Assembly: GCF_000027125.1 (NCBI RefSeq)
Contig: NC_017626.1
From: Escherichia coli 042
GTDB lineage: Bacteria; Pseudomonadota; Gammaproteobacteria; Enterobacterales; Enterobacteriaceae
Length of the DNA: 64,000 nucleotides
Strand: one strand, 5' to 3'
Shown: positions 22,591 to 37,502 of the stretch, one piece after another
How the letters are laid out: each line of letters starts with the position of its first letter
How positions within the stretch are numbered: the stretch's first letter is position 1
The notes under the pieces: generated by a model
Told to the model about the DNA's origin: nothing
What the model saw: the letters and a program-made list of their open reading frames with translations, nothing else
Databases searched by the model: none
Position numbers and translations under genes: made by a program

Positions 22591-24093
22591 TTACCTTTTT
22601 CTCCCCCCCAGCAAACTCCCCAACATTCCACGCACAATCTGATTCGTCACCTGGCGGGCGGCGCTTTTCGCCATTGTTTGCACAACACCATCTTTCTTCC
22701 CGCCGCGTGGTCCGGTAGTGCCGAACAAAATATCCTTCAATCCACCAAGAATGCCGTCATCTACCGCTACCTCTTTCCCTTTCGCGGGGGGATTATTTTG
22801 CTGCTCGGTGCTTGCCTGTACGCCTTTTTGCAACATCTCATAGGCGGATTCCCGGTCCACGTCATCCTCGTACTTGCCATACACCGGAGAGTGATTAATC
22901 AAGCCATTACGCTCATCTTCCGTCACCGGTCCCATCCGCGAACAAGGCGCAATCACCATCGCCCGTTCCACCACAGAAGGACTTCCTTTTGCATCGAGAA
23001 ACGAGATTAACGCCTCGCCGGTCCCCAGTTCCTGGATTGCCTTTTCCGTATCAAATGCAGGGGTGGGGCGCATGGTTTGCGCCGCAGCTTTTACCGCTTT
23101 CTGATCTTTGGGCGTAAAAGCACGCAAAGCGTGTTGAACGCGATTACCGAGCTGGCCGAGCACATTATCTGGAATATCAGACGGGTTTTGCGAAACGAAC
23201 CAGACGCCCACGCCTTTTGAGCGAATAAGCCTTATCACCTGCTCAATCTTATCCAGCAGTACCTGCGGGGCATCGTTAAATAGCAGATGTGCCTCGTCGA
23301 AGAAAAACACCAGTTTTGGTTTCTCCAGATCGCCCGCTTCCGGCAATTGTGCATACAACTCTGAAAGCATCCACAGCAGGCTGGCGGCGTACAGTTTCGG
23401 CATCTGATAAAGCTTCTCGGCGCTGAGGATATTGATAACGCCTTTACCGTTGGCATCGGTGCGCATCCAGTCTTTGATATCCAGCATCGGCTCACCAAAG
23501 AAGTGTGCTGCGCCTTGCTGTTCCAGCGACAACAGCCCGCGCTGGATGGCACCAACCGATGCGCTACTGATATTTCCGTACTGATTCTGGAAGGATTTGG
23601 CGTTATCGCCGATGTACTGGGTAATTGCCCGCAGATCTTTAAAGTCGAGCAGTAACAGCCCCTGATCGTCAGCAATGCGGAAAATGATATCCAGCACGCC
23701 AGATTGCACATCGTTGAGATTCAACAGTCGCGCCAGCAACAGCGGTCCCAGATCCGAAACCGTCGCCCGCACCGGATGGCCTTTCTCGCCAAAGATATCC
23801 CACACCACCACCGGATTGGCATGCGGTTGCCAATCATTGACGCCGATATTTTTAAGCCTTGCGAGCAGTTTTTCCGACGCCGTTCCTGCCTGCGCGATAC
23901 CGGTCAGATCGCCTTTCACATCAGCCATAAACACCGGCACGCCGATTTCCGACAATGACTCTGCCAGTTTTTGCAGCGTAACGGTTTTACCCGTCCCCGT
24001 TGCGCCGGTAATCAGCCCGTGACGGTTCGCCATTCCCGGCAGTAAAAACAGTTCTGTGTCCGGCGTGCGGGCAATTAACAGGGGTTCGCTCAT
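22591..24093 (-). CDS. yjgR: P-loop ATPase, DUF853 (HerA/FtsK-like)
   Basis: Internal Met of track ORF 22591..24141 gives [18 protein letters not shown]... Walker A motif GATGTGKT is present. Confidence 0.9.
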
Positions 24094-24222
24094 GAGATTT
24101 CCTCCAGTTTCCTGCCTGGAGTATAGGCAACGGCTGCGCACTCTTCACCGCTAAATTCAGCAGATTGCGAGACGCCTTCCAAAGAGATTTAAGTGCCGGG
24201 CGACAGGCACCCGGCAAAGAGA

Positions 24223-25437: not shown

Positions 25438-25522
25438 GCCGAAGTGGCGAAATCGGTAGACGCAGTTGATTCAAAATCAACCGTAGAAATACGTGCCGGT
25501 TCGAGTCCGGCCTTCGGCACCA
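25438..25522 (+). tRNA. leuX: tRNA-Leu (anticodon CAA)
   Basis: GCCGAAGTGGCGAAATCGGTAGACGCAGTTGATTCAAAATCAACCGTAGAAATACGTGCCGGTTCGAGTCCGGCCTTCGGCACCA. It has a long variable arm, CAA at 25472-25474 and an encoded CCA end. Confidence 0.95.
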
Positions 25523-25721: not shown

Positions 25722-26975
25722 ATGGCTCTGACAGATATCAAAGTGCGTTCTGCAAAACCACAGGAAAAGGAGTATACCCTTGCCGATGGAGATGGCATGT
25801 TTTTGCTCATTCACCCTAACGGCTCAAAATACTGGCGGTTTCGCTTTCGCTTTGGTGGTAAGCAGCACCTGATGGCATTTGGGGTTTATCCTGAAACGTC
25901 ACTGGCTGATGCTCGTCAAAAAAGGGAAGAGGCCAGAAAACTTGTTGCTGCAGGCATCGATCCCCGTGAACACAAACGTGCAGTGAAAGAAGAGCAGACG
26001 AAAGAGGCTATTACCTTTGAGTCAGTTGCCAGAGAGTGGCACGCAGTAAATAAAAAATGGACAGAAGAACATAGCCGACGGGTGCTGAAGAGCCTGGAAG
26101 ATAATTTGTTCCCAGCAATTGGGAAGCGGAGTATTGATAGTTTTAGTACGCGCGATCTCCTTGTCCCTATCAAAGTAGTTGAGGCTACAGGGCGTCTTGA
26201 AGTGGCTTCGCGTCTTCAGCAGCGTACCAATGCGATTATGCGTTGTGCAGTGCAAAGCGGTTTGATCGATTACAATCCTGCTCAGGAGATGGCTGGGGCA
26301 GTTGCTTCAAGTAATCGTGTCCATCGACCAGCACTTGAACTGAAACGCTTACCTGAACTACTCCAGCGAATTGATAGCTACTCCGGACGACCTTTAACCC
26401 GTCTGGCTGTTGAGCTCACGTTATTAATCTTTATTCGTTCCAGTGAGTTGCGCTTTGCCCGTTGGCCAGAGATCGATTTTGAAAGGGCAATGTGGACAAT
26501 CCCGGCAGAACGAGAAGCTATTGAAGGAGTGAAGCATTCGGAACGTGGCTCGAAAATGCGTACTCCTCATTTAGTGCCGCTTTCTCGTCAGGCACTGGCA
26601 ATCCTTAAACAGGTTCATAAGCTTAGTGGCGAGCGCGATTTTGTTTTCGTTGGAGATCACAATCCTTGTAAACCGATGAGTGAAAATACAGTGAACAAGG
26701 CGCTGCGCGTGATGGGATATGACACTAAGATTGAGGTTTGCGGTCATGGCTTCAGGACCATGGCATGTAGCTCGTTGATTGAATCAGGGCTGTGGTCTAG
26801 GAACGCTGTTGAAAGGCAGATGAGCCATATGGAGCGTAACTCTGTACGTGCTGCTTACATTCATAAGGCTCAACACTTGGATGAGCGTAAAATGATGCTG
26901 CAGTGGTGGGCAGATTTTCTTGATGTAAATCGGGTGAAGGGCGTCAGCCCATTTGATTTTGCCAAGGAGAAATGA
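25722..26975 (+). CDS. P4-type tyrosine integrase (IntB/IntS family)
   Basis: 417-aa ORF 200 nt downstream of leuX. N-terminus MALTDIKVRSAKPQEKEYTLADGDGMFLLIHPNGSKYWRFRF is the DUF4102 arm-binding type. The C-terminal HGFR...Y catalytic region is present. Confidence 0.92.
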   Translation: MALTDIKVRSAKPQEKEYTLADGDGMFLLIHPNGSKYWRFRFRFGGKQHLMAFGVYPETSLADARQKREEARKLVAAGIDPREHKRAVKEEQTKEAITFESVAREWHAVNKKWTEEHSRRVLKSLEDNLFPAIGKRSIDSFSTRDLLVPIKVVEATGRLEVASRLQQRTNAIMRCAVQSGLIDYNPAQEMAGAVASSNRVHRPALELKRLPELLQRIDSYSGRPLTRLAVELTLLIFIRSSELRFARWPEIDFERAMWTIPAEREAIEGVKHSERGSKMRTPHLVPLSRQALAILKQVHKLSGERDFVFVGDHNPCKPMSENTVNKALRVMGYDTKIEVCGHGFRTMACSSLIESGLWSRNAVERQMSHMERNSVRAAYIHKAQHLDERKMMLQWWADFLDVNRVKGVSPFDFAKEK

Positions 26976-27243
26976 GCTATGGTAATGAGGTTATAGATAA
27001 GAGAGAATACTACTTTATCGCGGGTTTTTAGTGGCTGGCAGGTCTAGATGAGTAGAAAATTCAAGTAATCTACACTCACTCGACTTAAAGATGGGGCCTT
27101 TTAAAAGGTCCTGCTTTGATGCTTACTGGAATGATAACCGTCCTAATCGTTGGCGAGTTTGTTCCATAAGTCCTGAATCCATAGGTTTTCTCTCTCATTG
27201 ATATTAAGTAGCACCCATAAATTTTATTCAAGGATAAGAGATA

Positions 27244-29628
27244 ATGGCAAATTTTTCGGTAGCTGCGAGAACATTAATTCATTTAGGGGCGGAACTGATT
27301 ACCTCAGATGAAGTTGCTATAAATGAACTTGTTAAGAATGCTTTTGATGCCGAATCTAAACGGGTTAGGATAAATGTATTCATACCTATTTCGCATTCGT
27401 TAATAGATGACTGCCTTGCAATACTCGACAATAGTAAAAAAGAGGAAGCTCTTCAAGATGATATTTTTCATATAAAGAAAATGTTAATTGAAAGTGTTTC
27501 TGAACCTTCTATTGCAGCCCAAGTAGAAGAGTTGTTGCTAAACTTAACTTCAGATTCTAGCAAGGATGAAGCAAAAAAAATAGTCGAGTCGATAAACTAT
27601 ATAACAATCGAAGATTCTGGTTGTGGAATGGATTTAGCGACACTTGAAACGGTATTTTTGGCAATAGGCACTCCCTCTAAAGTAAACTCTGAAAGTACAA
27701 AAGACTTAAATAGAAAAATCCTAGGCAATAAAGGTATTGGACGTTTAGCAATGATGAGACTTGGGGATATTGCCAACGTTACATCTTGGGTTGAACAAGG
27801 TAGTGCCCATGAAATTGAATTCGACTGGCGAATGTTTGACGATCCTGAAAAAATAATCACCGATATTGAATTTGAAATAAAACCGACCACTTGTCCAAGG
27901 CCAACACCTTCAGGGACTGTAATAAAGATAACAGCACTTAAAAGCTCTTGGACTGAAGAAAAAGTTCGCGAAAAGCTCGTGGGTGATTTTTTTAGAAGGT
28001 TACAAAACCCATTTGTGATGTCATTGGATGAAGGTAGCTCCGATAACACAAAAAAAAATAAAAAGAATAGAACTGTAGGCTTTCCAATAGATGTTCATAT
28101 TAATGGAGGAACTCGAATACCTATCGAAGGTATGAAGAAAGTGTTAACAGATTTAGTTCAGGCTGATATGGAGCTCTGGTTTGACCCAAACGGGATTGGT
28201 GATACACCTGAAGTTATTCTCCGTACGAGTTTGACTGACTACCAACGTGGAAATGAACCTGAAAATACTAATAGAACAATAGAAGAAGTAACACATGTTT
28301 TAAATGTTAATTTTGAAGCACTTAAGAAAATTGGCCCCGTAAGAGCTACTATTAGATGGTTTAATAGAGAACGGTTACGCCAGCAAGCTACTTTGCATGG
28401 TAACTGGAAAGCAGCGAAGGCCGAATTAGATTTATGGTGTGGAGGAATAGCAATATATCGAGATGGTTTTCGCATTGGATTTTCTGGACAATCAACCGGC
28501 GAAGACTGGCTGGGACTAGATAGTTCTGCTCTTAAGAGAGGAGGTTTTGCTGTAAACCGTATTCAGACTGTCGGTGCGTTAGAGATTTCAAGAAAAGAAA
28601 ATCCCGGTTTGGTTGATAGATCTAATAGAGAAGGATTGATTGAATCACCAGAATCCAATCTTGTAAGAGATATGCTGTCGAAATTTGCTATTGATGAACT
28701 TCGTCGCTACATCGGTCATGAAGGGCAAGAAGAGAAGAAAGCACGTCTAAATGATATAGTTGAAAGCGCTCCTGCAACTATACGCGCTCGGATACTGCAA
28801 GCTGAGCAAGGACTCACATCTATAAGGTCTAAGGTTCCCGCAGATGTTCAAGAATCAGTACAATCAATCGCAAATAATTTACACTTTATAAAAAATGAAG
28901 TAACTCGTTTTGAAGAGGCTAGCAAACTAGCAACAGAGAGACGTGAGGATATTCTTGAACTTGCTGGTGTTGGAACCGTAATGTCTGGTGTACTACATGA
29001 GCTCACTAGGACAACAGGCCACACTCGACAGCTGTTACAAAAGTTATCTAAAGATGAGTCTCCTGGTACTAAAGCTTTATTAACGAAGCTAGATTCGGAA
29101 ATTAAAGCGATCAATACGCGACTTCGACAGTTAGATCCTTTAACACCTTCTGGAAGGCATCGCAAAGAAATATTTAATTTGTCAGCATTGCTGAATACTA
29201 TATTAGAAGGGTATGGAGCTCGCTTTGAACGGCATAATATAATTCCAGAATTCAAAATCTCTGGAGTTGATGATACTCAACCTGTCGAAGTAAATATGGT
29301 ACGTGGTTTTGTTAGCCTTGCAATTGAGAATTTAATTACAAACTCGGTTTATTGGGTTCAGCAGGGGGGGAGAAGTGATCGTCGTATTACTTTAGAACTA
29401 GATGCAGAATCTAGGACATTAACTTTGCGTGATAATGGGCCAGGTATTTCTCCTGCAGATAAAGACAGAATTTTCACTGCAGGATTTACAATGCGACCTA
29501 AAGGGCAGGGTTTGGGTCTTTTCATTGCAGCTGAAGTGGCTACCTATCATGATGCGAGGCTTTTGTTGGACTCTGCTGATGAGGATGGCCGATATAGAGG
29601 TTTTGTCTTGGAGCTTCCAAAGGAATGA
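27244..29628 (+). CDS. Cytoplasmic dual-GHKL protein: N-terminal MORC/Hsp90-like ATPase plus C-terminal histidine-kinase-like module
   Basis: 794-aa ORF. N-terminal Bergerat motifs are E28-LVKN32-AFDA, D124-SGCG128 and G161-NKGIGRLA. The C-terminus has an H-box-like SGVLH585ELTRTTG, an N-box ENLITN700SVYW, G1 D730-NGPGI and G2 GQGLGL. I see no obvious TM segment. Confidence 0.6.
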   Translation: MANFSVAARTLIHLGAELITSDEVAINELVKNAFDAESKRVRINVFIPISHSLIDDCLAILDNSKKEEALQDDIFHIKKMLIESVSEPSIAAQVEELLLNLTSDSSKDEAKKIVESINYITIEDSGCGMDLATLETVFLAIGTPSKVNSESTKDLNRKILGNKGIGRLAMMRLGDIANVTSWVEQGSAHEIEFDWRMFDDPEKIITDIEFEIKPTTCPRPTPSGTVIKITALKSSWTEEKVREKLVGDFFRRLQNPFVMSLDEGSSDNTKKNKKNRTVGFPIDVHINGGTRIPIEGMKKVLTDLVQADMELWFDPNGIGDTPEVILRTSLTDYQRGNEPENTNRTIEEVTHVLNVNFEALKKIGPVRATIRWFNRERLRQQATLHGNWKAAKAELDLWCGGIAIYRDGFRIGFSGQSTGEDWLGLDSSALKRGGFAVNRIQTVGALEISRKENPGLVDRSNREGLIESPESNLVRDMLSKFAIDELRRYIGHEGQEEKKARLNDIVESAPATIRARILQAEQGLTSIRSKVPADVQESVQSIANNLHFIKNEVTRFEEASKLATERREDILELAGVGTVMSGVLHELTRTTGHTRQLLQKLSKDESPGTKALLTKLDSEIKAINTRLRQLDPLTPSGRHRKEIFNLSALLNTILEGYGARFERHNIIPEFKISGVDDTQPVEVNMVRGFVSLAIENLITNSVYWVQQGGRSDRRITLELDAESRTLTLRDNGPGISPADKDRIFTAGFTMRPKGQGLGLFIAAEVATYHDARLLLDSADEDGRYRGFVLELPKE

Positions 29629-31475
29629 TTATGGATATTCAAAAGTCATTTACTGAATCAAAAATTTTAAAAGTAGCGATCGTTGACGACGATTTGTCCG
29701 ATTTAATTACTATGGACGATCTGAATACTATAGACAAGGATATTGCCAGTTTGCTTGGTGATCCATCCGATCCTGATTGTGAAAGTTACCATGAACTACT
29801 AGCATCTGAAGGCTATGATCTTGACGAAATAGAAGATCTTGCTCAACCTCTTTCAAATAAATCAATTAGAGAAAAAGCTCCTGAGCGTCTAAAAAATGCG
29901 GCAAATAAAATTATCGAATTTCGTTATGATAACGCCAAGCCAATTAGACGTGTTAAACAATTACTACTGGAAGCTGGCATTTTAGAGGATAATATTCATT
30001 ATTATTTTAGCCCTGAAATACCTAATGAAGAGTTTTATGATCTTTTAGTGATAGATTACTTCTTGGTAAAAAATTCCTCCAAGCATACTTTACCTTTTAT
30101 CAAAAAAATACTCTCAACTCATGAAAAGGCACCAAAGCCTTTACAAGTTATTCTGATGTCGACTTATGAGGCAGAGTTAAAAGCAGAATTCAGGAATATT
30201 CGTCCCGAGATAAGAACTTCAAGCTCAAGAATGAGAATCATGAGCAAACCAATGTCTGATGATGATTTAGTATACTGGCGCTCTGCTTTGTTCCAGTTAT
30301 CTTCAGATCGACAATTTGTCGATGCAGTAGAAAAATTTGTTACTGAAACAATAAGTGGTTTTCAACATGCTGCACAAGAACAAGCTAAAAGATTATGGGA
30401 GCTTGATCTTCAGGCAATGGATATTCTCCATGAAGCTGCAACATCTGATAATGATGATTTTTGCCGCTATGTTGAAGAATGTCTAAGTAGACAATTATTA
30501 ACGGCTCTAGAAGAATGCTCTGGTATAAGAAAATCATTAGGTGTTTTAGGTGAATCATTAATAAAACATAGAGCTAACAACGTAATTGCGCCTGTTACTG
30601 AAATTGGTGATTCGAGGGCGGCAATTAGAACACTAATGAGGAGTATGGAATGGCGTGGGGGAAATACCCCTAGCATGACAGAGTTTAAAGACCCTAAAGA
30701 CAGAGCAAAGTGGATTCAGAAAAATCTGAGATTTGGAATGGTACTAAAATCACCAGATGATAAAAGATGGCTTAATTTAACTCAAGCGTGTGATCTTGCA
30801 CAAACAAAAGAGGATAATTTAAATTCGGTATCTCTCTTGCTTATTAGTGGTTCCTATGCTCGGCCAGTTGGACGTGAGAATGGGCAATCATTAGTGTATT
30901 TGAACACATCATTATCTGATGCAGGTAGTGAGGTTTTGTGTTGGGATGTACGTAATGTTCAAACGCCCTCAATATTTGATTTTGCTCAAACGTTTTATAA
31001 TGGCTGGTCAATTACTGGAGAGCTTCGTCTAGACCAGGCTCAAAGTATAGCTGCTTTATATAGTTCTCGAACTTTAAGGGTTGGTCTTCAAAAAAGGCTA
31101 AGTAGCTGGTGTCTTGATGGTAAAGCTTTATTCATAAACAAATTAAATAACAGCGCTCCAAGTGATAAAATCGAGGGTACGACTATTTCTGGTCATGCGA
31201 TGAATCGTGGTAAACCCGACGAAGTACATATCGATAAAGATAGCATGATAAAGCTTCAAAGAGATTTTCCTAATAGTATTAATAAAATATCTCTGAAATT
31301 ATATATGGGAATGCAGCTAAAGCCTGGTTCAAAAAACCAAGAAGAAGGTATTTTGATTTATTGTGCTGAAAAGCCGGAGAATATAGAATCACTTCGTAGG
31401 GCTATTAATGATAATGATTTTTTAAATCGTGATGTTAATCAAAATAAAGTGGTAATAGCTCTATGGCATAAGTGA
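29625..31475 (+). CDS. Divergent receiver(REC)-like N-terminus fused to an unknown ~400-aa C-terminal domain
   Basis: 616-aa ORF. Its ATG overlaps the upstream stop (ATGA), and an alternative ATG at 29631 has better AAGGA spacing. REC-like landmarks are LKVAIVD21D22D23, YDLLVID144YFL, LQVILMS179T180 and IMSK208P. I recognise no output-domain motif. Confidence 0.5.
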   Translation: MIMDIQKSFTESKILKVAIVDDDLSDLITMDDLNTIDKDIASLLGDPSDPDCESYHELLASEGYDLDEIEDLAQPLSNKSIREKAPERLKNAANKIIEFRYDNAKPIRRVKQLLLEAGILEDNIHYYFSPEIPNEEFYDLLVIDYFLVKNSSKHTLPFIKKILSTHEKAPKPLQVILMSTYEAELKAEFRNIRPEIRTSSSRMRIMSKPMSDDDLVYWRSALFQLSSDRQFVDAVEKFVTETISGFQHAAQEQAKRLWELDLQAMDILHEAATSDNDDFCRYVEECLSRQLLTALEECSGIRKSLGVLGESLIKHRANNVIAPVTEIGDSRAAIRTLMRSMEWRGGNTPSMTEFKDPKDRAKWIQKNLRFGMVLKSPDDKRWLNLTQACDLAQTKEDNLNSVSLLLISGSYARPVGRENGQSLVYLNTSLSDAGSEVLCWDVRNVQTPSIFDFAQTFYNGWSITGELRLDQAQSIAALYSSRTLRVGLQKRLSSWCLDGKALFINKLNNSAPSDKIEGTTISGHAMNRGKPDEVHIDKDSMIKLQRDFPNSINKISLKLYMGMQLKPGSKNQEEGILIYCAEKPENIESLRRAINDNDFLNRDVNQNKVVIALWHK

Positions 31476-31513
31476 TTTGATTTATTGCTAATTTATCAGG
31501 TGTATTATTTTCT

Positions 31514-31550
31514 CAATGTGAGCTAATTATTTCTTTATTAGCTCACATTG
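31514..31550. terminator. Perfect 14-bp-stem hairpin between the two convergent operons
   Basis: CAATGTGAGCTAAT (31514-31527), a 9-nt loop, then ATTAGCTCACATTG (31537-31550), with AT-rich flanks on both sides. Confidence 0.6.
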
Positions 31551-31623
31551 ATATCCATTTATGTTAAATGATAAGGGGAAATTGTACTATAAAATATAGA
31601 CCAGATTAATTTACCCCTTCTTT

Positions 31624-32463
31624 TTATTTATGGCAAATTGCGCATGAGCCTCCGCCTTCATCTTCCCCATAAATTTCATCAATATCAATGAGAGTCTCAC
31701 CAGGGCGTAGTGGGTTAATGATTTTTTTCGCTTTGAGTCTGGCTTGCCGCTTTTCAAAATCAGTGACAATTTGAGCAATTCTTTCAGGCTCCTCAAGTGA
31801 CTCTAGTGATTCACCTTTAGTCCAAGTAAAGGGAGAACCATGTTCAATTGCATTTTTTTCATATCGTTTAGCTTCTTCAAATGCCTCTGGGTGACGCTCT
31901 TTTAATCTTACCCACTCAATCTTTTGTTGGAAGAAGCAAAAAGTACAGCCGCTACGTGATCGCCATTCATAATATTTTGGAAGACCAACTCCTGATGAGT
32001 CAAGAATATCCATAACACCTTTCCGATCTATTCCGGCATCTCTAAATGGTAAACTAATAGTTAAATTTGCATTTTTCGAACTATATCCTTCACGGTAATC
32101 TTCGTCTGCTCTTATTGCTACATAGCTTGTAACTTTATCACCAGCATTAAGCATCGGACGAACCCACTGTTCGAAGGGCGCGAGTTTTAACTGACGAGTA
32201 CACCAACGAGTCTGCGGCGAGGGTAGAAAATGATTATATTCACGTAACCAGAAATCAAAACCACGTCTAGGGTTTAGTCTGGCAATTGGTTTGCCTAAAA
32301 ATCCTTCTAATCGCCCCAAAAACTCATAGACTTCAGGTAATTCTTTACCTGTATCAGTAAAGAAATAGTCGATATCTAACTCGGGGCGTGTCTGGCGCAT
32401 GAAAACAGCAAGTGCAGCACTGTCTTTACCCCCAGAAATACCAAGTACATGCTTTTCAGTCAT
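31624..32463 (-). CDS. sspD: PP-loop ATP pyrophosphatase, PAPS-reductase-like (SspD/DndC-like)
   Basis: Track ORF 31624..32481. The Met at 32463 has a GAGG Shine-Dalgarno and gives MTEKHVLGISGGKDSAALAVFM (SGGKDS PP-loop). C-terminal cysteines are CTFCFF and CAICHK. Confidence 0.7.
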   Translation of the reverse strand: MTEKHVLGISGGKDSAALAVFMRQTRPELDIDYFFTDTGKELPEVYEFLGRLEGFLGKPIARLNPRRGFDFWLREYNHFLPSPQTRWCTRQLKLAPFEQWVRPMLNAGDKVTSYVAIRADEDYREGYSSKNANLTISLPFRDAGIDRKGVMDILDSSGVGLPKYYEWRSRSGCTFCFFQQKIEWVRLKERHPEAFEEAKRYEKNAIEHGSPFTWTKGESLESLEEPERIAQIVTDFEKRQARLKAKKIINPLRPGETLIDIDEIYGEDEGGGSCAICHK

Positions 32464-35400
32464 TCTTAACCTCAACATCATGCTGAGCGATTTTAATACA
32501 AGCTTTACCTAATGCAGCCATTATAATATCTGGGTTTAATCCTTTTCCAGATAATGTTCTAATTAACTCACCGGCGAGGTTGTCAATCTGATGGTTGAAT
32601 TGCTCAGGTATACTGAATTCGTGTTTGAATGTTTTCATTTCTGAACCAGCTCCAATAACCACTGCAAATGCCTCGCTTGATGGTTTTCGTCCTTGGATCG
32701 ATACTAATGCTTCGGATTGGCGAAACCGCAGTGCAAAATTGGCTATTTCCATAAGTGCTAAATCAATATCTCGATCATTCCAGTCTCTTGGAGGCTTGTT
32801 TGCAGCTAGGCTGAGTATACCTTCTATAGAATAATGACTACCATCGTACGTAGCTAAACGTGTTGAAAAGGCATCTTGCCGAAGTTCGCCAGTGATACCG
32901 GATAACGTTTCAGCACGTTTTCGTAGTGTAGATAAGTCATCTTTATTAGCATTCAGAGCTTTTAGCATTCTTGATGCAAATTGGTCTAAGAGTTTGTCAT
33001 AGGCACTCCAAAGTTCTTTTACTGGAGCCTGTAATGCATCAACATAATTTTTCCCACTTTCTACATTTAGAGCCGCGGCTAAATCAATAAATAAAACTTT
33101 ATGAGGATCGCTAGCTTTTAATAGTGTATCTCGTACCTTCTTCGCATTAGATGAAAGTCTCGCCGTCCTTTGTGTCCAATTTGGGAGTCCAACAATCATG
33201 GCAACTAGACTTCTGGCAGCTTCTAACGGTTCAGCTGAATTAGACATGAGACCAATAGAATCAAGAAGTTTACCAATTCCTACTAGAATCTTTTGTTTTT
33301 CATCATCAATTACAATCCACCGCAAGGAAAAACGTTTTTCATCCTGCAAGTATTCATCAATATCTGCATCAGTAAAAGTAGGAATAAATAATCCATCTTT
33401 ATAAATAGCAATATTACTTTTAGATGCCAGAAGGAAGGCCATAAATATTATCGGTATAACACCTTTTTTTAAACCAAATGGAGGTTTAGCCCAAAGGGTA
33501 TGAATATCAGATACTGATATCATTTGATTTTTATTTTTAATGAAATCATGCGTTTTCTTCCAAAGACCATAAAACGACGAATGCTTGTCGCTGACCGCAG
33601 GAAGAAAATGATAATACCCATCATGATGCTTCGCATACAAGCCGGTACGATGGAGAATCGTTTCATATAGGCCGCGTGAGGCAGGATATCCCTCAATTCC
33701 AAGATGGAGTTCACCCTCATTTTCTAGCATTCGATATAACAATTCTTTCCTGGCTTTTACGCTATTGCTGGATAAATTATCACGATTAACTAATTCACTC
33801 CATAACCTTGGAGCTTTGTAGTAAATATTATCTGCAAGAGAGGATGCAATTGATGATAAAGTACCTTTAGGTTCCGCCTGAGCAGAATCTATACACCATT
33901 CCGCAGTCGCTAATGCCTCTGCTAACTGTTCTTCTAATGTTGATTGCGTTGCACTTATCCTTGCTTGGACTTCTCTTCGTGCAACAGCATCACCTTGTAA
34001 TTCATGTCCACGTTTAGTTTGGACTATTTGAAGTGCTAGGAGTTCGGCACCTAAATCTTCTATGCGCAGGTAGTTATGTGGAATCCCGGCAACAATGGGC
34101 CATGGCTTTGAACGAGAAGCATCAGCACAAATTATTTTAGCTTGTTCTTCATTTACATTTCTTTCAGGAAGTGCCAGAAGAAATAATCCAAACTCTCCGT
34201 TACGTGGCTGGAACTCTTCTGAATATTTTTTTACCTCGTTAAGGTGACAAAGTGCAATATTCATCCAGCGAAAAGTACCAGTTTGATGGTAATGCCTTTT
34301 TGCAATTACAGGATAAAGATTAGCAATTTTATTCAGTTGACTAAAATCTGTTCCAAGCATGGTTGCACGTGATTGTGCAACGGCTTGGTCAATATTAAAA
34401 TCACTTCCTTCAAAAACAGACCATGCCCCGGTATGTTTTTTGAATATGATAACACGCCATTTAGAAAGATCTTCGAGTGCGGATCTAATATTTTCAATAG
34501 AAGTATTCAAGAATAATGATTCTAGTATGCTTGTTTCAGCGGTCAATCCTGAACCATCTTTGAAAAGGTCAAGTATTGCAATACATTTAATTAAATCAAT
34601 ATGCAATATATTATCAGATTTTGCCTCCGCACGTTCTACAGCGTCTACCGCTTGTGCCCAACGATGTCCATCATTAGAGGCCAAAATTAATTGTTCAAGA
34701 TTTGCTCTTAAGTAATCGAAATAGTTTGAGGGAAGATACCAAGTAGCCTCTTCAAATGTGGTTAGATTGAGATAGTTTTGAAACCCGAAAGGTTCAGAGG
34801 ACGAGAGAAAACCAAAAGTTGAACGCTCGTTCTGTCCAAACTGACGTTTTGATATAGGTCCTAATAAAGCAGCCATTACCGGGTGTAAAGGCCAACACTT
34901 GGATAATGCATAATCATATTGCTTTCCAACCATTGGGCGTCGATCATAAATAGCATCCGCGACTACTTGCGCTACTTTTTGAGTGTATTTGGGTCTTTTT
35001 TTAACATCTAACGCTTTACCTATAAGTTCAACAACTTCATCACTCCCTGCAACTAAGGGAATATCAGCATAACGGCCTTGGATTTTAGTCCACTCTTCAC
35101 GAGTTTCAAGTCCAAGTCGAACAGCATATTGTCCAAAAGATTGATGTAATATACCTAAGATAATGACTTTACCATTTGTACGTGCTGCAGATTCAGCAAG
35201 CTCTTGGTAAAAATAAATATCATCGCCATTTCCTAAAGCTGATGCTTCAAGGAACTTACCTAGCTCGTCAATGATAAGCAAGGTACCATCTAACTTCGCT
35301 TCATCTGCAGCACTGCATATGTGTTTAATAAGTAATGATGCTGATTTTTTATAATCTTTATCACTACCACAAACATTATTCAGAGTTTGCGAAATTTGTT

Positions 35401-35788
35401 GGATTATGCTACCTCTGCGGCCAATAACTGGAAGTATTAACCATCCTTTTTTAACTTGGAATGCTTTATCAAAATCACTTTGTGAATCGACATTTAACAA
35501 TGACCTTGCTTTTTCACGTAGAGCTTTGTTAGGTGATAATGAACTTGCAAGAACTAACGCTAATGATGATTTCCCACTTCCATACGGACCAGTCCATGTG
35601 AAAGCTCGCTGTTGGCTATTCAGAACCTGCTTGGACATGTTTTCAAGAACGCTTTGTGCCGTGCCATTGCATACATATCCATCAAGCGCATCTTCGCGGC
35701 CAAGATCAGCATCAATACGGATGGAACGTTGGTATTGTCTCGCAATGCGAACCTGTTCTGAAAGAAGGTTTTTATTATGTTTAGTCAT
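32456..35788 (-). CDS. sspC: Large P-loop ATPase (DUF499/BrxC-like; SspC-like)
   Basis: Track ORF 32456..35800 starts at a TTG; the ATG is at 35788. Walker A is GPYGSGKSS and Walker B is LLIIDELGK. The ~1110-aa size fits DUF499-type ATPases. Confidence 0.65.
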   Translation of the reverse strand: MTKHNKNLLSEQVRIARQYQRSIRIDADLGREDALDGYVCNGTAQSVLENMSKQVLNSQQRAFTWTGPYGSGKSSLALVLASSLSPNKALREKARSLLNVDSQSDFDKAFQVKKGWLILPVIGRRGSIIQQISQTLNNVCGSDKDYKKSASLLIKHICSAADEAKLDGTLLIIDELGKFLEASALGNGDDIYFYQELAESAARTNGKVIILGILHQSFGQYAVRLGLETREEWTKIQGRYADIPLVAGSDEVVELIGKALDVKKRPKYTQKVAQVVADAIYDRRPMVGKQYDYALSKCWPLHPVMAALLGPISKRQFGQNERSTFGFLSSSEPFGFQNYLNLTTFEEATWYLPSNYFDYLRANLEQLILASNDGHRWAQAVDAVERAEAKSDNILHIDLIKCIAILDLFKDGSGLTAETSILESLFLNTSIENIRSALEDLSKWRVIIFKKHTGAWSVFEGSDFNIDQAVAQSRATMLGTDFSQLNKIANLYPVIAKRHYHQTGTFRWMNIALCHLNEVKKYSEEFQPRNGEFGLFLLALPERNVNEEQAKIICADASRSKPWPIVAGIPHNYLRIEDLGAELLALQIVQTKRGHELQGDAVARREVQARISATQSTLEEQLAEALATAEWCIDSAQAEPKGTLSSIASSLADNIYYKAPRLWSELVNRDNLSSNSVKARKELLYRMLENEGELHLGIEGYPASRGLYETILHRTGLYAKHHDGYYHFLPAVSDKHSSFYGLWKKTHDFIKNKNQMISVSDIHTLWAKPPFGLKKGVIPIIFMAFLLASKSNIAIYKDGLFIPTFTDADIDEYLQDEKRFSLRWIVIDDEKQKILVGIGKLLDSIGLMSNSAEPLEAARSLVAMIVGLPNWTQRTARLSSNAKKVRDTLLKASDPHKVLFIDLAAALNVESGKNYVDALQAPVKELWSAYDKLLDQFASRMLKALNANKDDLSTLRKRAETLSGITGELRQDAFSTRLATYDGSHYSIEGILSLAANKPPRDWNDRDIDLALMEIANFALRFRQSEALVSIQGRKPSSEAFAVVIGAGSEMKTFKHEFSIPEQFNHQIDNLAGELIRTLSGKGLNPDIIMAALGKACIKIAQHDVEVKND

Positions 35789-36671
35789 AAGCCTTTCCAA
35801 GCATGTTCAATTTAATTACTTCTGTTTCTGATGTTTTACGATGAACCTGGCGTAAACCAGCTGTATCAGTCCATATAAATGAACCTTCAGTTAACTCTTC
35901 TAATGCGAATAATCGTTCTGCAATAGAGTCTTCATCGAGCTTAAATACTCTACCCGGAGAACCGTCCCCATATGCAATTGTTTCGAAGGATAATGAGCTG
36001 AGATTTAGGGCCTTACGCTCCCAATAATCGATCAGAGCATAAGCAAATACACCATCAGACAAAGTAATCTTTGGACCTCGACGAAATGAAAAGTGTCCTT
36101 TTTTTTCTTCAGCTAGTAAACCTAATTCACCAAGCATAGGTTCGGCAAAGTCTTCAGGAGTGGTTCCACTCGACCGCGGTGCATAACTACGCAAACATGT
36201 CTCAATATCTCGAGAAAGTGTCATTGGTGATAGTTTTCTCCCAGGACAACATTGCGTAGCATAGTCAGCTAAAAGAGCCCGGAGGTCTTCTTGTGTAAAA
36301 GATGAAGAAACAACATGGTTAAATAACCAGTACCAAGTTGTCGAGCGTTCTCCTTTTCCTGAAAGCTTCCAATGGCTAAGCCATGCTGTCGAGGGATGCT
36401 CTGAATAAGGATCAAGCCCATGTTCGCTAAATATTTTAATAGCAAATTCTGTAAGTTTGAATTTACCATCCTCTTCTCGCATTACTTCACAGGCGAGTGC
36501 CCAATGCTTGATTGATGCGACCATGTTTTTGCCTACACCAAATTTGGCAATGGCCTCATCATTCGAAAAAACCGATTTGTCAATAGAACCATCCGGCGCT
36601 GCATAACTGCAGGTTTTTTTTAACCACATTTGTCTTAGTGGGAAGGTCTCGTGACCTGAAAAGTGAGCCAT
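35781..36671 (-). CDS. sspB: DUF4007-family protein (SspB-like)
   Basis: 296-aa ORF. The N-terminus MAHFSGHETFPLRQMWLKK matches my recollection of the DUF4007 signature. It is the first gene of the three-gene overlapping operon. Confidence 0.65.
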   Translation of the reverse strand: MAHFSGHETFPLRQMWLKKTCSYAAPDGSIDKSVFSNDEAIAKFGVGKNMVASIKHWALACEVMREEDGKFKLTEFAIKIFSEHGLDPYSEHPSTAWLSHWKLSGKGERSTTWYWLFNHVVSSSFTQEDLRALLADYATQCCPGRKLSPMTLSRDIETCLRSYAPRSSGTTPEDFAEPMLGELGLLAEEKKGHFSFRRGPKITLSDGVFAYALIDYWERKALNLSSLSFETIAYGDGSPGRVFKLDEDSIAERLFALEELTEGSFIWTDTAGLRQVHRKTSETEVIKLNMLGKAYD

Positions 36672-37502
36672 GACTTATCCTAATGCGATAACAACTTTGT
36701 ATAAGCTGATTGTACAGGAACTGGAGAGTTTCACCAGTGGCGGCTTTTGGACATCATTGGGGTGGCGTAGCGGTTTTTTTTTTATTTTTTTCGTTAAAAT
36801 ACATATTGTTAATTGTTTTTTATTGCGGAGGGGAACTGTCTATATCTTCTCATGCATCGGGATTTTTAACAGGCCTGAGCTGGCATGTTCTACCGTTTCA
36901 CACAGAAAGGAACAGTTAGTTTCAAACGGATACTTATCAATCAGTGGTGTGAGAAATGCTAAGAGTGGGAAACGCACTTAATTTTATGATTTCTTAGTGA
37001 CCAGTTTTTAACCATGAGCTAATCTTAAAATCTGATTTTTATCAATGAGTTAATGTTGATGTACTATGCGGCAATGAATGAAGTGTATTGCCATTCCGAA
37101 TTTTTGCTCATTTTTTAGCCATTTCCATACTTTTTTGCGTGAATATTTTATGAACAATGTTCCTTTCATAACTTATCTGTCTCAAATGATACGTTTGGAG
37201 TTTACAATTACTAAATATTTAATGTAAGTGGGAACAGCTATTTTTTGTTCATATTAGCTCCCAGCAGCAAAAGATGATGTAATTCATCCGGTGCAGAGAT
37301 AATATAGGAATGGATAATCTGGAGAGCGACTCTGCAGGCTGATATTGCGGTTTTGCGGCAAGTTTTTGGCATCCGCTTCTACGCCAAATACCTGAAGTAG
37401 GAATGGATGCGTTAGCAGCATACATCCGGATCTGCGCGGGGAATAGCCGGAAACGGCTATCCCTACCACAATAGCTAACTTTGTAATAGTGCCCTTTTAG
37501 GC

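Follow-up and report, generated by a model that had tools for sequence, protein, structure and literature searches.

Introduction

What does a soluble histidine kinase that carries a second, MORC/Hsp90-type ATPase module do beside the genes for phosphorothioate (PT) modification of DNA? The question is raised by a locus in a 64,000-nucleotide stretch of Escherichia coli 042 (NCBI RefSeq assembly GCF_000027125.1, contig NC_017626.1), the whole of which is referred to here as the window. An open reading frame (ORF) at positions 27244-29628 encodes the kinase and is followed by an overlapping gene for a receiver-domain protein and by the convergent genes sspD, sspC and sspB of an Ssp system. The answer favoured here is that the kinase, with its ATP-gated clamp, and the receiver protein form a His-Asp pair that may serve as a dedicated companion of PT modification by SspBCD, a reading to which the sequence evidence gives a probability of about 0.5. 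A sequence-only reading of the window had described the kinase as one polypeptide with two Bergerat-fold ATPase modules and had implied that such a design was previously unseen. The dual-ATPase architecture itself is not new, since it was published in 2021 and is represented in Pfam by PF19191 and PF19192; what is added by the present analysis is the tight link to Ssp, on the strength of which the cassette may be proposed as a variant form of Ssp defence that has a phosphorelay partner.

Domain architecture of the kinase

The kinase is divided into the following parts, all encoded on the plus strand.

27244..29628, plus strand: dual-GHKL soluble histidine kinase, 794 amino acids (aa), open ORF (Pfam, alignment, AlphaFold model, Foldseek)
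27244..28008, plus strand: N-terminal MORC/Hsp90-type GHKL head, residues 1-255 (Pfam PF13589, invariant residues, Foldseek, endoplasmin N-domain profile matches)
28081..28638, plus strand: middle alpha/beta domain, residues ~280-465 (secondary structure of the model, long Foldseek alignments, invariant columns)
28648..29130, plus strand: helical stalk and DHp hairpin, residues 469-629 (model helices; alignments with HK853, ThkA and ZraS)
29161..29625, plus strand: catalytic ATP-binding (CA) domain, residues 640-794 (Pfam PF02518, 66 bits; structural match to HK853)

Two separate GHKL matches were found in the protein by Pfam, namely HATPase_c_3 (PF13589) at residues 118-203 (58 bits against a cut-off of 25, E 1.4e-15) and HATPase_c (PF02518) at residues 691-793 (against a cut-off of 26.4, E 4.5e-18), both of which lie above the curated cut-offs and are not due to chance. 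The motifs quoted in the sequence-only reading were located at the residues assigned to them, with ELVKNAFDA at 28, DSGCG at 124, GNKGIGRLA at 161, HELTRTTG at 585, ENLITNSVYW at 695 (hence N700), DNGPGI at 730 and GQGLGL at 754. They constitute motifs I (E28/N32/D35), II (D124-G126-G128) and III (G161-R167) of the N-terminal head, which are followed by G224-T225, and the N box (N700), G1 box (D730-G734) and G2 box (G754-G758) of the CA domain, while the phospho-acceptor pair H585-E586 is encoded at 28996-29001. In an alignment of 64 full-length kinase homologues (41-85% identity), E28, N32, D35, D124, G126, G128, G161, K163, G164, G166 and R167 of the N-terminal module and H585, E586, N700, D730, G732, G734, G754, G756 and G758 of the kinase core are invariant in all 64 sequences.

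The AlphaFold model of the kinase (pLDDT 79.8) confirms two genuine Bergerat-fold modules, for which separate Foldseek matches were obtained. The DHp and CA domains were aligned with those of HK853 (E 3.6e-11, TM 0.60), and alignments of about 550 columns were returned for DNA-bound MORC2 (PDB 9cdj), TRAP1 and Hsp90 (E 1.5e-10; TM 0.48 on the target for MORC2), in keeping with the MORC/Hsp90-like N-terminus that had been proposed. The family profile likewise matched the solved histidine kinases ThkA, ZraS and HK853 over the DHp and CA domains (residues 549-782, E 1e-12 to 1e-10) and an Hsp90-family N-domain over residues 75-200 (E 3e-4). The assignment of a HisKA-type H-box on a DHp helix pair at H585 was borne out by model helices at 533-602, which bears H585, and 607-629; a further helix spans 469-528, and the stalk (469-602) continues into the H-box helix. 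The sequence-only reading went astray in leaving about 400 residues between the modules as a region of unknown fold, because the model resolves them into the remainder of the GHKL head (to ~255), the mixed alpha/beta middle domain and the helical stalk. The long MORC2/TRAP1 alignments run beyond the GHKL head into the middle region, and R375, R406, D407, R410 and N461-R462-E463-G464 of the middle domain are invariant in the 64-sequence alignment; judging from the model, this domain is a transducer-like region that may have the S5 fold.

Degenerate GHKL domains occur in other proteins, and the best Pfam stretch of the N-terminal head spans only residues 118-203, so that the head could be conceived as a non-catalytic scaffold or dimerisation domain in a protein that functions as an ordinary kinase with a passive input. 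This explanation is very unlikely given that E28, N32, D35, the DxGxG and GxxGxG motifs and G224-T225 are invariant or nearly so among the 64 sequences down to 41% identity, that the domain is still detected in relatives of 28-37% identity in a Pfam scan of ten representatives, and that the middle domain contains many invariant Arg, Asp and Asn residues. By its motifs and predicted structure, the protein is instead a soluble histidine kinase whose input domain is an intact clamp ATPase of the MORC/Hsp90 type.

The RefSeq label “sensor histidine kinase” would fit an ordinary housekeeping or environmental sensor kinase that has been mis-described here, yet this view is hardly credible and is already refuted by distribution and architecture. 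The gene is present in only nine of 5426 complete E. coli genomes, within a low-GC integrase island, and its partner lacks a DNA-binding output. The best NCBIfam equivalog matches of the kinase reach 62-68 bits against cut-offs of 550-646, so that it shows no close homology to a characterised housekeeping kinase. No transmembrane segment or signal peptide was found in the kinase, in agreement with the sequence-only reading, the highest Kyte-Doolittle mean over 19 residues being 1.49, and a periplasmic sensor is likewise absent.

The overlapping receiver gene

The gene downstream of the kinase overlaps it by the tetranucleotide ATGA and encodes a receiver-domain protein.

29625..31475, plus strand: receiver-domain partner, 616 aa by this ORF call (RefSeq start 29631, 614 aa), whose ATG overlaps the stop codon of the kinase
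29667..30254, plus strand: REC domain, residues ~15-210, with a helical insert of ~100 residues after strand 1
30258..31472, plus strand: output region, comprising a helical part (212-345) and an alpha/beta part (357-616)

The N-terminal part of the partner fits a CheY-like (beta-alpha)5 receiver, in which D21/D22 lie at strand 1, D144 (codon at 30054-30056) at strand 3, S179 at strand 4 and K208 at strand 5. Its score against Response_reg_2 (PF19192) is 22 bits, below the gathering threshold of 27, and the same model is matched by 35 of 46 partner relatives with a best E value of 2.4e-6. Kinase and partner co-evolve with r = 0.93. The output region holds the invariant residues D261, D275, E296, G371, C389-D390 (30789-30794), R468 and R485. 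The partner is the predicted cognate receiver of the kinase, and its output region is conserved. Among 46 to 56 relatives, neither a helix-turn-helix nor any other output domain for DNA binding was found.

The invariant Cys-Asp of the partner family is situated at a strand-to-helix elbow (“hhhh-T-Q-A-C-D-L-A”) and is not accompanied by a conserved His. A similar “CD[LI]” after a hydrophobic strand is seen in the short partners of a sister clade described below (locus L090, 9145-10317; locus L109, 10042-11064), for which profile alignments are statistically weak. A caspase/CHAT assignment, prompted by the hydrophobic strand followed by Q-A-C and by two weak CHAT matches, was rejected because the whole output region is without a conserved His. 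Readings of “CDLAQxK” as a PD-(D/E)xK or a C-x5-R/K phosphatase-like motif were discarded because the Lys is not conserved in alphaproteobacterial relatives.

Linkage of the pair to sspBCD

The genes that face the pair in the window were identified as follows.

31624..32481, minus strand: sspD, PAPS-reductase family (PADLOC SspD, E 1.4e-140; Pfam PAPS_reduct)
32456..35800, minus strand: sspC, large ATPase (PADLOC SspC, 1451 bits)
35781..36671, minus strand: sspB, DUF4007 (PADLOC SspB, E 6.9e-115; Pfam DUF4007, E 4.8e-90)

Related loci were gathered from species-representative genomes, from metagenomes by a scan for the partner protein, from assemblies encoding database homologues and from plasmid records. 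The species-representative scan used a generic kinase G2-box pattern, and only ~10 of its 80 loci were true family members. Clustering of the kinases at 80% identity gave 19 clusters in the clade of the window protein, to which they are 28-100% identical. Within flanks of 10 kb, sspB, sspC and sspD are all present in 17 of these clusters; in the 18th, on Agrobacterium plasmid pAtK224b, sspD-C-B-A lies immediately beyond sspFGH, and the 19th is a metagenome contig that begins inside sspG. The pair thus stands beside sspBCD in 18 of 19 clusters, in four different orders or orientations of the two modules and on chromosomes as well as plasmids of gamma-, beta- and alphaproteobacteria. The hosts comprise E. 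coli, Pectobacterium, Salmonella, Citrobacter, Gilliamella, Pseudomonas, Stenotrophomonas, Dokdonella, A. baumannii, Polaromonas (plasmid), Methyloversatilis, Tardiphaga and Sphingomonas. By way of background, about 3% of genomes carry sspBCD (PMC12914056).

Within E. coli, the kinase and partner genes (4.2 kb) of the nine carrier genomes are 99.9-100% identical, and the sspBCD allele of the window occurs in exactly the same nine of the 5426 complete genomes. An integrase-led cassette with these five genes is found in E. coli and in Pectobacterium, where the copy occupies a different chromosomal site. The conserved linkage points to a functional coupling of the pair to SspBCD, and the suggestion of the sequence-only reading that the kinase belongs to a conflict system has held in the form of a low-GC island at tRNA-Leu, beside sspBCD, with a widely conserved linkage. 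A link between the pair and Ssp phosphorothioation appears to be essentially undescribed so far.

In A. baumannii VB1190 (locus L106, 9989-19330), a kinase of 37% identity, a 637-aa partner and convergent sspD-C-B are arranged as in the window. For A. baumannii global clone 2, whose Ssp genes lack sspE, a “two-component system” has been reported close to those genes (PMC12421847), and the VB1190 pair, from a strain whose clonal group is not established, may be that system. The record that holds the VB1190 locus is classed as a plasmid at a length of 658 kb; PLSDB contains several A. baumannii “plasmid” entries of 0.6-4 Mb, which have the appearance of chromosomes.

The pair directly adjoins both sspFGH and sspBCD in locus L107 (1104-19385, Polaromonas pPNAP02), L108 and L110 (Agrobacterium pAtK224b), L006, L011, L098, L099 and L101, where the order is either sspFGH, pair and convergent sspDCB, or pair, sspFGH and convergent sspDCBA. 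In a contig of Salmonella Livingstone (L084), the cassette of Ssp genes and pair is embedded in a dense defence island together with a GmrSD-family enzyme, a helicase-PLD protein, an Mrr-like nuclease and BrxL.

A methylase-linked sister clade

Kinases of a sister clade (~700-730 aa, 23-24% identity) possess the same two GHKL domains and are encoded beside a C5 cytosine methylase instead of sspBCD. Their partners are 340-400 aa long, as against 616-735 aa in the ssp-linked clade. The operon found in Bacteroidota consists of an optional Vsr gene, a C5-methylase, a 358-aa protein, a HerA-like ATPase, the kinase, a receiver-like protein of ~390 aa and an HNH_2 nuclease; in loci L089 (3059-11088) and L090 (3066-11084) its six genes run in one direction, with Vsr at either end. 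PADLOC recognises only the methylase, HerA and HNH parts of this operon, which from its gene content looks like an uncharacterised multi-component system of the restriction-modification kind. Conjugative plasmids of Campylobacter (~50 kb) carry a kinase, a 340-aa “response regulator”, a convergent dcm and an AAA ATPase, as exemplified by C. coli plasmid pCC21NB01-51K (L109, 7860-14258) and 15 other Campylobacter plasmids, and this set is a plasmid-borne version of the sister system.

The gene layout of the sister clade is that of a modification-plus-restriction system, and the pairing of one chassis with two chemically different DNA marks is what would be expected if the chassis were the half of a modification-based defence that reads or restricts. 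MADS (mad1-8) was considered because HerA-like proteins match PADLOC mad8, and was rejected since the MADS preprint has no kinase component and neither kinase nor partner matches a mad model. WonAB and VcSduA of V. cholerae were set aside as unrelated architectures.

Comparison with known systems

The architecture of the kinase was defined computationally by Bellieny-Rabelo, Pretorius and Moleleki in 2021 (Genome Biol Evol 13:evab024, PMC8011034) together with the families HEF_HK (PF19191) and Response_reg_2 (PF19192). In that study, soluble proteins with the order HATPase_c_3, HEF_HK and HATPase_c (“group 1”) accounted for 174 of 222 members, 91.6% were linked to a receiver-like gene, C5-methylases, Vsr, HNH_2 and type II restriction-modification genes were enriched nearby, and descent from paraMORCs was proposed. 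The window pair resembles those pairs in domain order, solubility and DNA-modification neighbours, and in that the receiver-like gene next to the kinase retains the catalytic residues of REC and has loop insertions. It differs in its neighbours' identity, being linked to sspBCD where the published family is linked to C5-methylases, Vsr, HNH_2 and type II restriction-modification genes; the main text of the 2021 paper makes no mention of phosphorothioation, Dnd, Ssp, DUF4007 or PAPS reductase. The HEF_HK match of the window kinase is weak (residues 583-634, 19.6 bits against a gathering threshold of 24.1) and, with the partner also below threshold, the two proteins form a peripheral clade of the family, in which a relative of the kinase (P0118) passes the HEF_HK gathering score with 28.8 bits.

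MORC proteins and paraMORCs share with the kinase the order of a GHKL head, its motifs intact, and a middle domain, and MORC2, TRAP1 and Hsp90 gave the best structural matches of long extent. Shared as well is a gene neighbourhood of methylases, HNH/Vsr nucleases and helicase or translocase ATPases. ParaMORCs have been described in restriction-modification operons with no kinase fusion (Iyer, Abhiman and Aravind 2008, PMC2292703) and end in nuclease, TIR or uncharacterised extensions, whereas the window protein ends in a complete histidine-kinase core, and therefore its output would be phosphotransfer.

Ssp systems (Xiong et al. 2020; Wang et al. 2021, PMC8092258; Zhou et al. 2026, PMC13251355) resemble the window island in that a partner module that consumes nucleoside triphosphates (NTPs) adjoins the modification genes on a mobile island. 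The modification module of the window is sspB-sspC-sspD without sspA, as in E. coli 3234/A. SspE is comparable as an NTPase switch licensed by PT-DNA, and SspFGH as a module that can coexist with a second partner module, a coexistence also implied by the loci in which it stands side by side with the pair. No sequence relationship to SspE, SspF, SspG or SspH was detected for kinase or partner by PADLOC, so that the island is without SspE and SspFGH, and the pair has no identified nuclease domain. A further difference is that His-Asp phosphotransfer between two proteins is proposed for the pair, as opposed to an intramolecular allosteric switch. SspE and SspFGH are the only Ssp effectors named in the searchable literature up to 2026, and ~84% of sspBCD loci are without a known restriction partner (PMC8092258).

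For a further system, Detocs, PADLOC 2.0.0 gave no match for kinase or partner, although the presence of Detocs models in that set is unconfirmed. Detocs, reportedly described by Rousset et al. in Cell in 2023, is said to drive an anti-phage effector by His-Asp phosphotransfer, with a receiver fused to a non-transcriptional output. It reportedly differs from the window pair in having another sensor domain, a buffer receiver protein, a nucleosidase-type effector and no tie to a DNA-modification module.

Proposed mechanism and alternative explanations

Based on the domain structure, the conserved residues and the gene neighbourhood, a possible mechanism was proposed for the pair. The kinase would dimerise permanently through the four-helix bundle of its DHp domains, which would take the place of the C-terminal dimerisation domain of Hsp90, MutL and MORC. 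ATP-dependent closure of the two N-terminal heads could depend on the state of DNA, distinguishing PT-marked self from unmarked incoming molecules, and this closure may be relayed down the ~130-residue helical stalk to switch the kinase core. The C-terminal ATPase domain would then phosphorylate H585, from which the phosphoryl group would be transferred to D144 of the partner. Phosphorylation of D144 could turn on the output region of ~400 residues and lead to damage of the invader, as in restriction, or to arrest of the cell. PT could either license the system, as with SspE, or protect against it, as with SspFGH, both directions of regulation being compatible with the sequence. The five-gene cassette of kinase, receiver protein, sspD, sspC and sspB would represent an Ssp defence with a third kind of partner besides SspE and SspFGH, and in the sister clade the same chassis would work with a C5 cytosine methylase.

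In a bolder version, which is tentative and stands at less than even odds, the pair would be a self-sufficient third restriction arm of Ssp immunity, in which the MORC-type clamp reads PT and relays the signal to a new Cys-Asp effector domain. The same chassis would read 5-methylcytosine in the sister clade, so as to constitute a general “two-component” reader of epigenetic marks, and the pair could supply the effector that the Ssp system of A. baumannii global clone 2 lacks.

Several observations weigh against a dedicated companion of SspBCD that acts in restriction. The family is known from sequence and predicted structure alone. The pLDDT of the kinase model falls below 50 at residues 566-588, around H585, as expected because a monomer was modelled for what is a dimeric four-helix bundle. 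The loci were gathered by homology searches and not by a census of sspBCD, so that the counts run only from the pair towards sspBCD. No recognisable nuclease or other toxic fold is present in the output region of the partner, for which reason an “effector” role is an assumption. The genes sspF, sspG or sspH co-occur with the pair in seven fetched loci (5 of 19 clusters), in one of which true SspFGH was confirmed by PADLOC with E values down to 0, and the pair could because of this co-occurrence be an accessory or a regulator and not a stand-alone restriction arm. Lastly, kinase and SspC identities correlate only moderately (r = 0.50), while the Ssp genes co-vary tightly among themselves (r = 0.84-0.94); the two modules are therefore distinct and sometimes swapped.

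The coexistence with SspFGH in several loci and the lack of an identifiable nuclease fold would both suit the main rival explanation, according to which the pair is a cytoplasmic two-component system that tunes the PT-modification genes, or SspFGH, in response to the state of DNA or nucleotides, much as DndB does in dnd. PT would then have a role in regulation or epigenetics. Ssp clusters have no known dedicated regulator, a regulatory role was also proposed for the published pairs by Bellieny-Rabelo et al. (PMC8011034), and “a role in epigenetics” is given as an alternative in the A. baumannii paper. This explanation is nevertheless rather unlikely, since the 46 to 56 relatives mentioned above lack a DNA-reading output and the invariant acidic, Cys and Arg residues of the output region are more like an active site than a DNA reader. 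In addition, the sister operons flank the pair with a HerA-like ATPase on one side and an HNH nuclease on the other, and its varying gene order relative to ssp, including convergent arrangements, argues against simple promoter-proximal control.

The partial reshuffling of modules indicated by the correlation of 0.50 could also be explained if the pair were a module for defence or abortive infection that acts independently of PT and is merely carried along with Ssp. Islands are a common setting for defence genes, and GmrSD, Mrr, BrxL, toxin-antitoxin pairs and SIR2 are found near several of the loci. This lesser rival is distinctly unlikely in view of a direct adjacency that persists in 18 of 19 clusters, with identities as low as 28%, despite four rearrangements and a variety of replicons. 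It is also opposed by the strict co-occurrence in E. coli and by the joint travel of the five genes behind the integrase. The sister clade, moreover, consistently has a different DNA-modification enzyme in the same position, which is the signature of dependence on a modification mark. The reading of the pair as a dedicated companion of SspBCD thus remains the favoured one.

Self/non-self discrimination by PT systems is poorly understood, with only 10-15% of sites modified (PMC12914056), and the pair, as a mobile module of two genes whose association with sspBCD is conserved across proteobacteria, offers a concrete candidate for some of the missing machinery. A homologue adjoins sspE-less Ssp genes in an A. 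baumannii genome. If the favoured reading is true, phosphorelay signalling would be part of a restriction-modification-type defence, and a bacterial, genetically tractable model of MORC-type clamps that read the state of DNA would become available. If the pair is a regulator instead, Ssp modification would have in it a first known control circuit of its own.

The island and its surroundings

The backbone of the window is the E. coli chromosome with pepA, lptF, lptG, yjgR and ahr, followed by the tRNA gene at which the island is integrated.

25438..25522, plus strand: tRNA-Leu(CAA), integration site of the island (ARAGORN)
25722..26975, plus strand: P4-type tyrosine integrase of the island (Pfam Arm-DNA-bind_3, Phage_int_M and Phage_integrase)

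The island starts right after the tRNA gene, and its G+C content is 36-41% from ~27000 to 37000 against 52-55% in the flanks. The integrase is followed by the kinase ORF, the overlapping partner ORF and the convergent sspD, sspC and sspB, after which an IS110 remnant and a LacI/PTS locus are encountered. At the right end (36672-37500), the only marker is this IS110 transposase remnant, taken from the annotation of the identical RefSeq locus, and the right border is undefined because no att-like direct repeat of the 3' end of tRNA-Leu occurs between 25400 and 38000.

The partner gene and the convergent sspD are separated by a gap that contains a perfect 15-bp inverted repeat at 31513..31551 (TCAATGTGAGCTAAT, a 9-nt loop and ATTAGCTCACATTGA). 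This repeat might serve as a bidirectional terminator or bind a protein; a simple terminator scan made no call in this gap, the inverted repeat included. A promoter scan upstream of and inside the operon was uninformative, since 12 sites were called where 14.8 would be expected.

In the nine E. coli genomes, the RefSeq names are “sensor histidine kinase” for the kinase and “hypothetical protein” for the partner. In three of them (NZ_CP122816.1, NZ_CP122722.1 and NZ_CP146556.1; strains ETEC1731, ETEC1747 and B1.H1.39), the kinase and/or the partner is annotated as two pieces and the match is 1-2 bases shorter, which may reflect a real inactivation of a costly module or indel errors of assembly.

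The core E. coli gene yjgR (22591-24141, minus strand), situated just outside the island, belongs to the HerA_C family (E 9e-253) and gave PADLOC matches to mad8 and HerA. HerA/FtsK-type ATPases also occur in the sister operons and within SspH. The closeness of yjgR to the island was treated as a coincidence.

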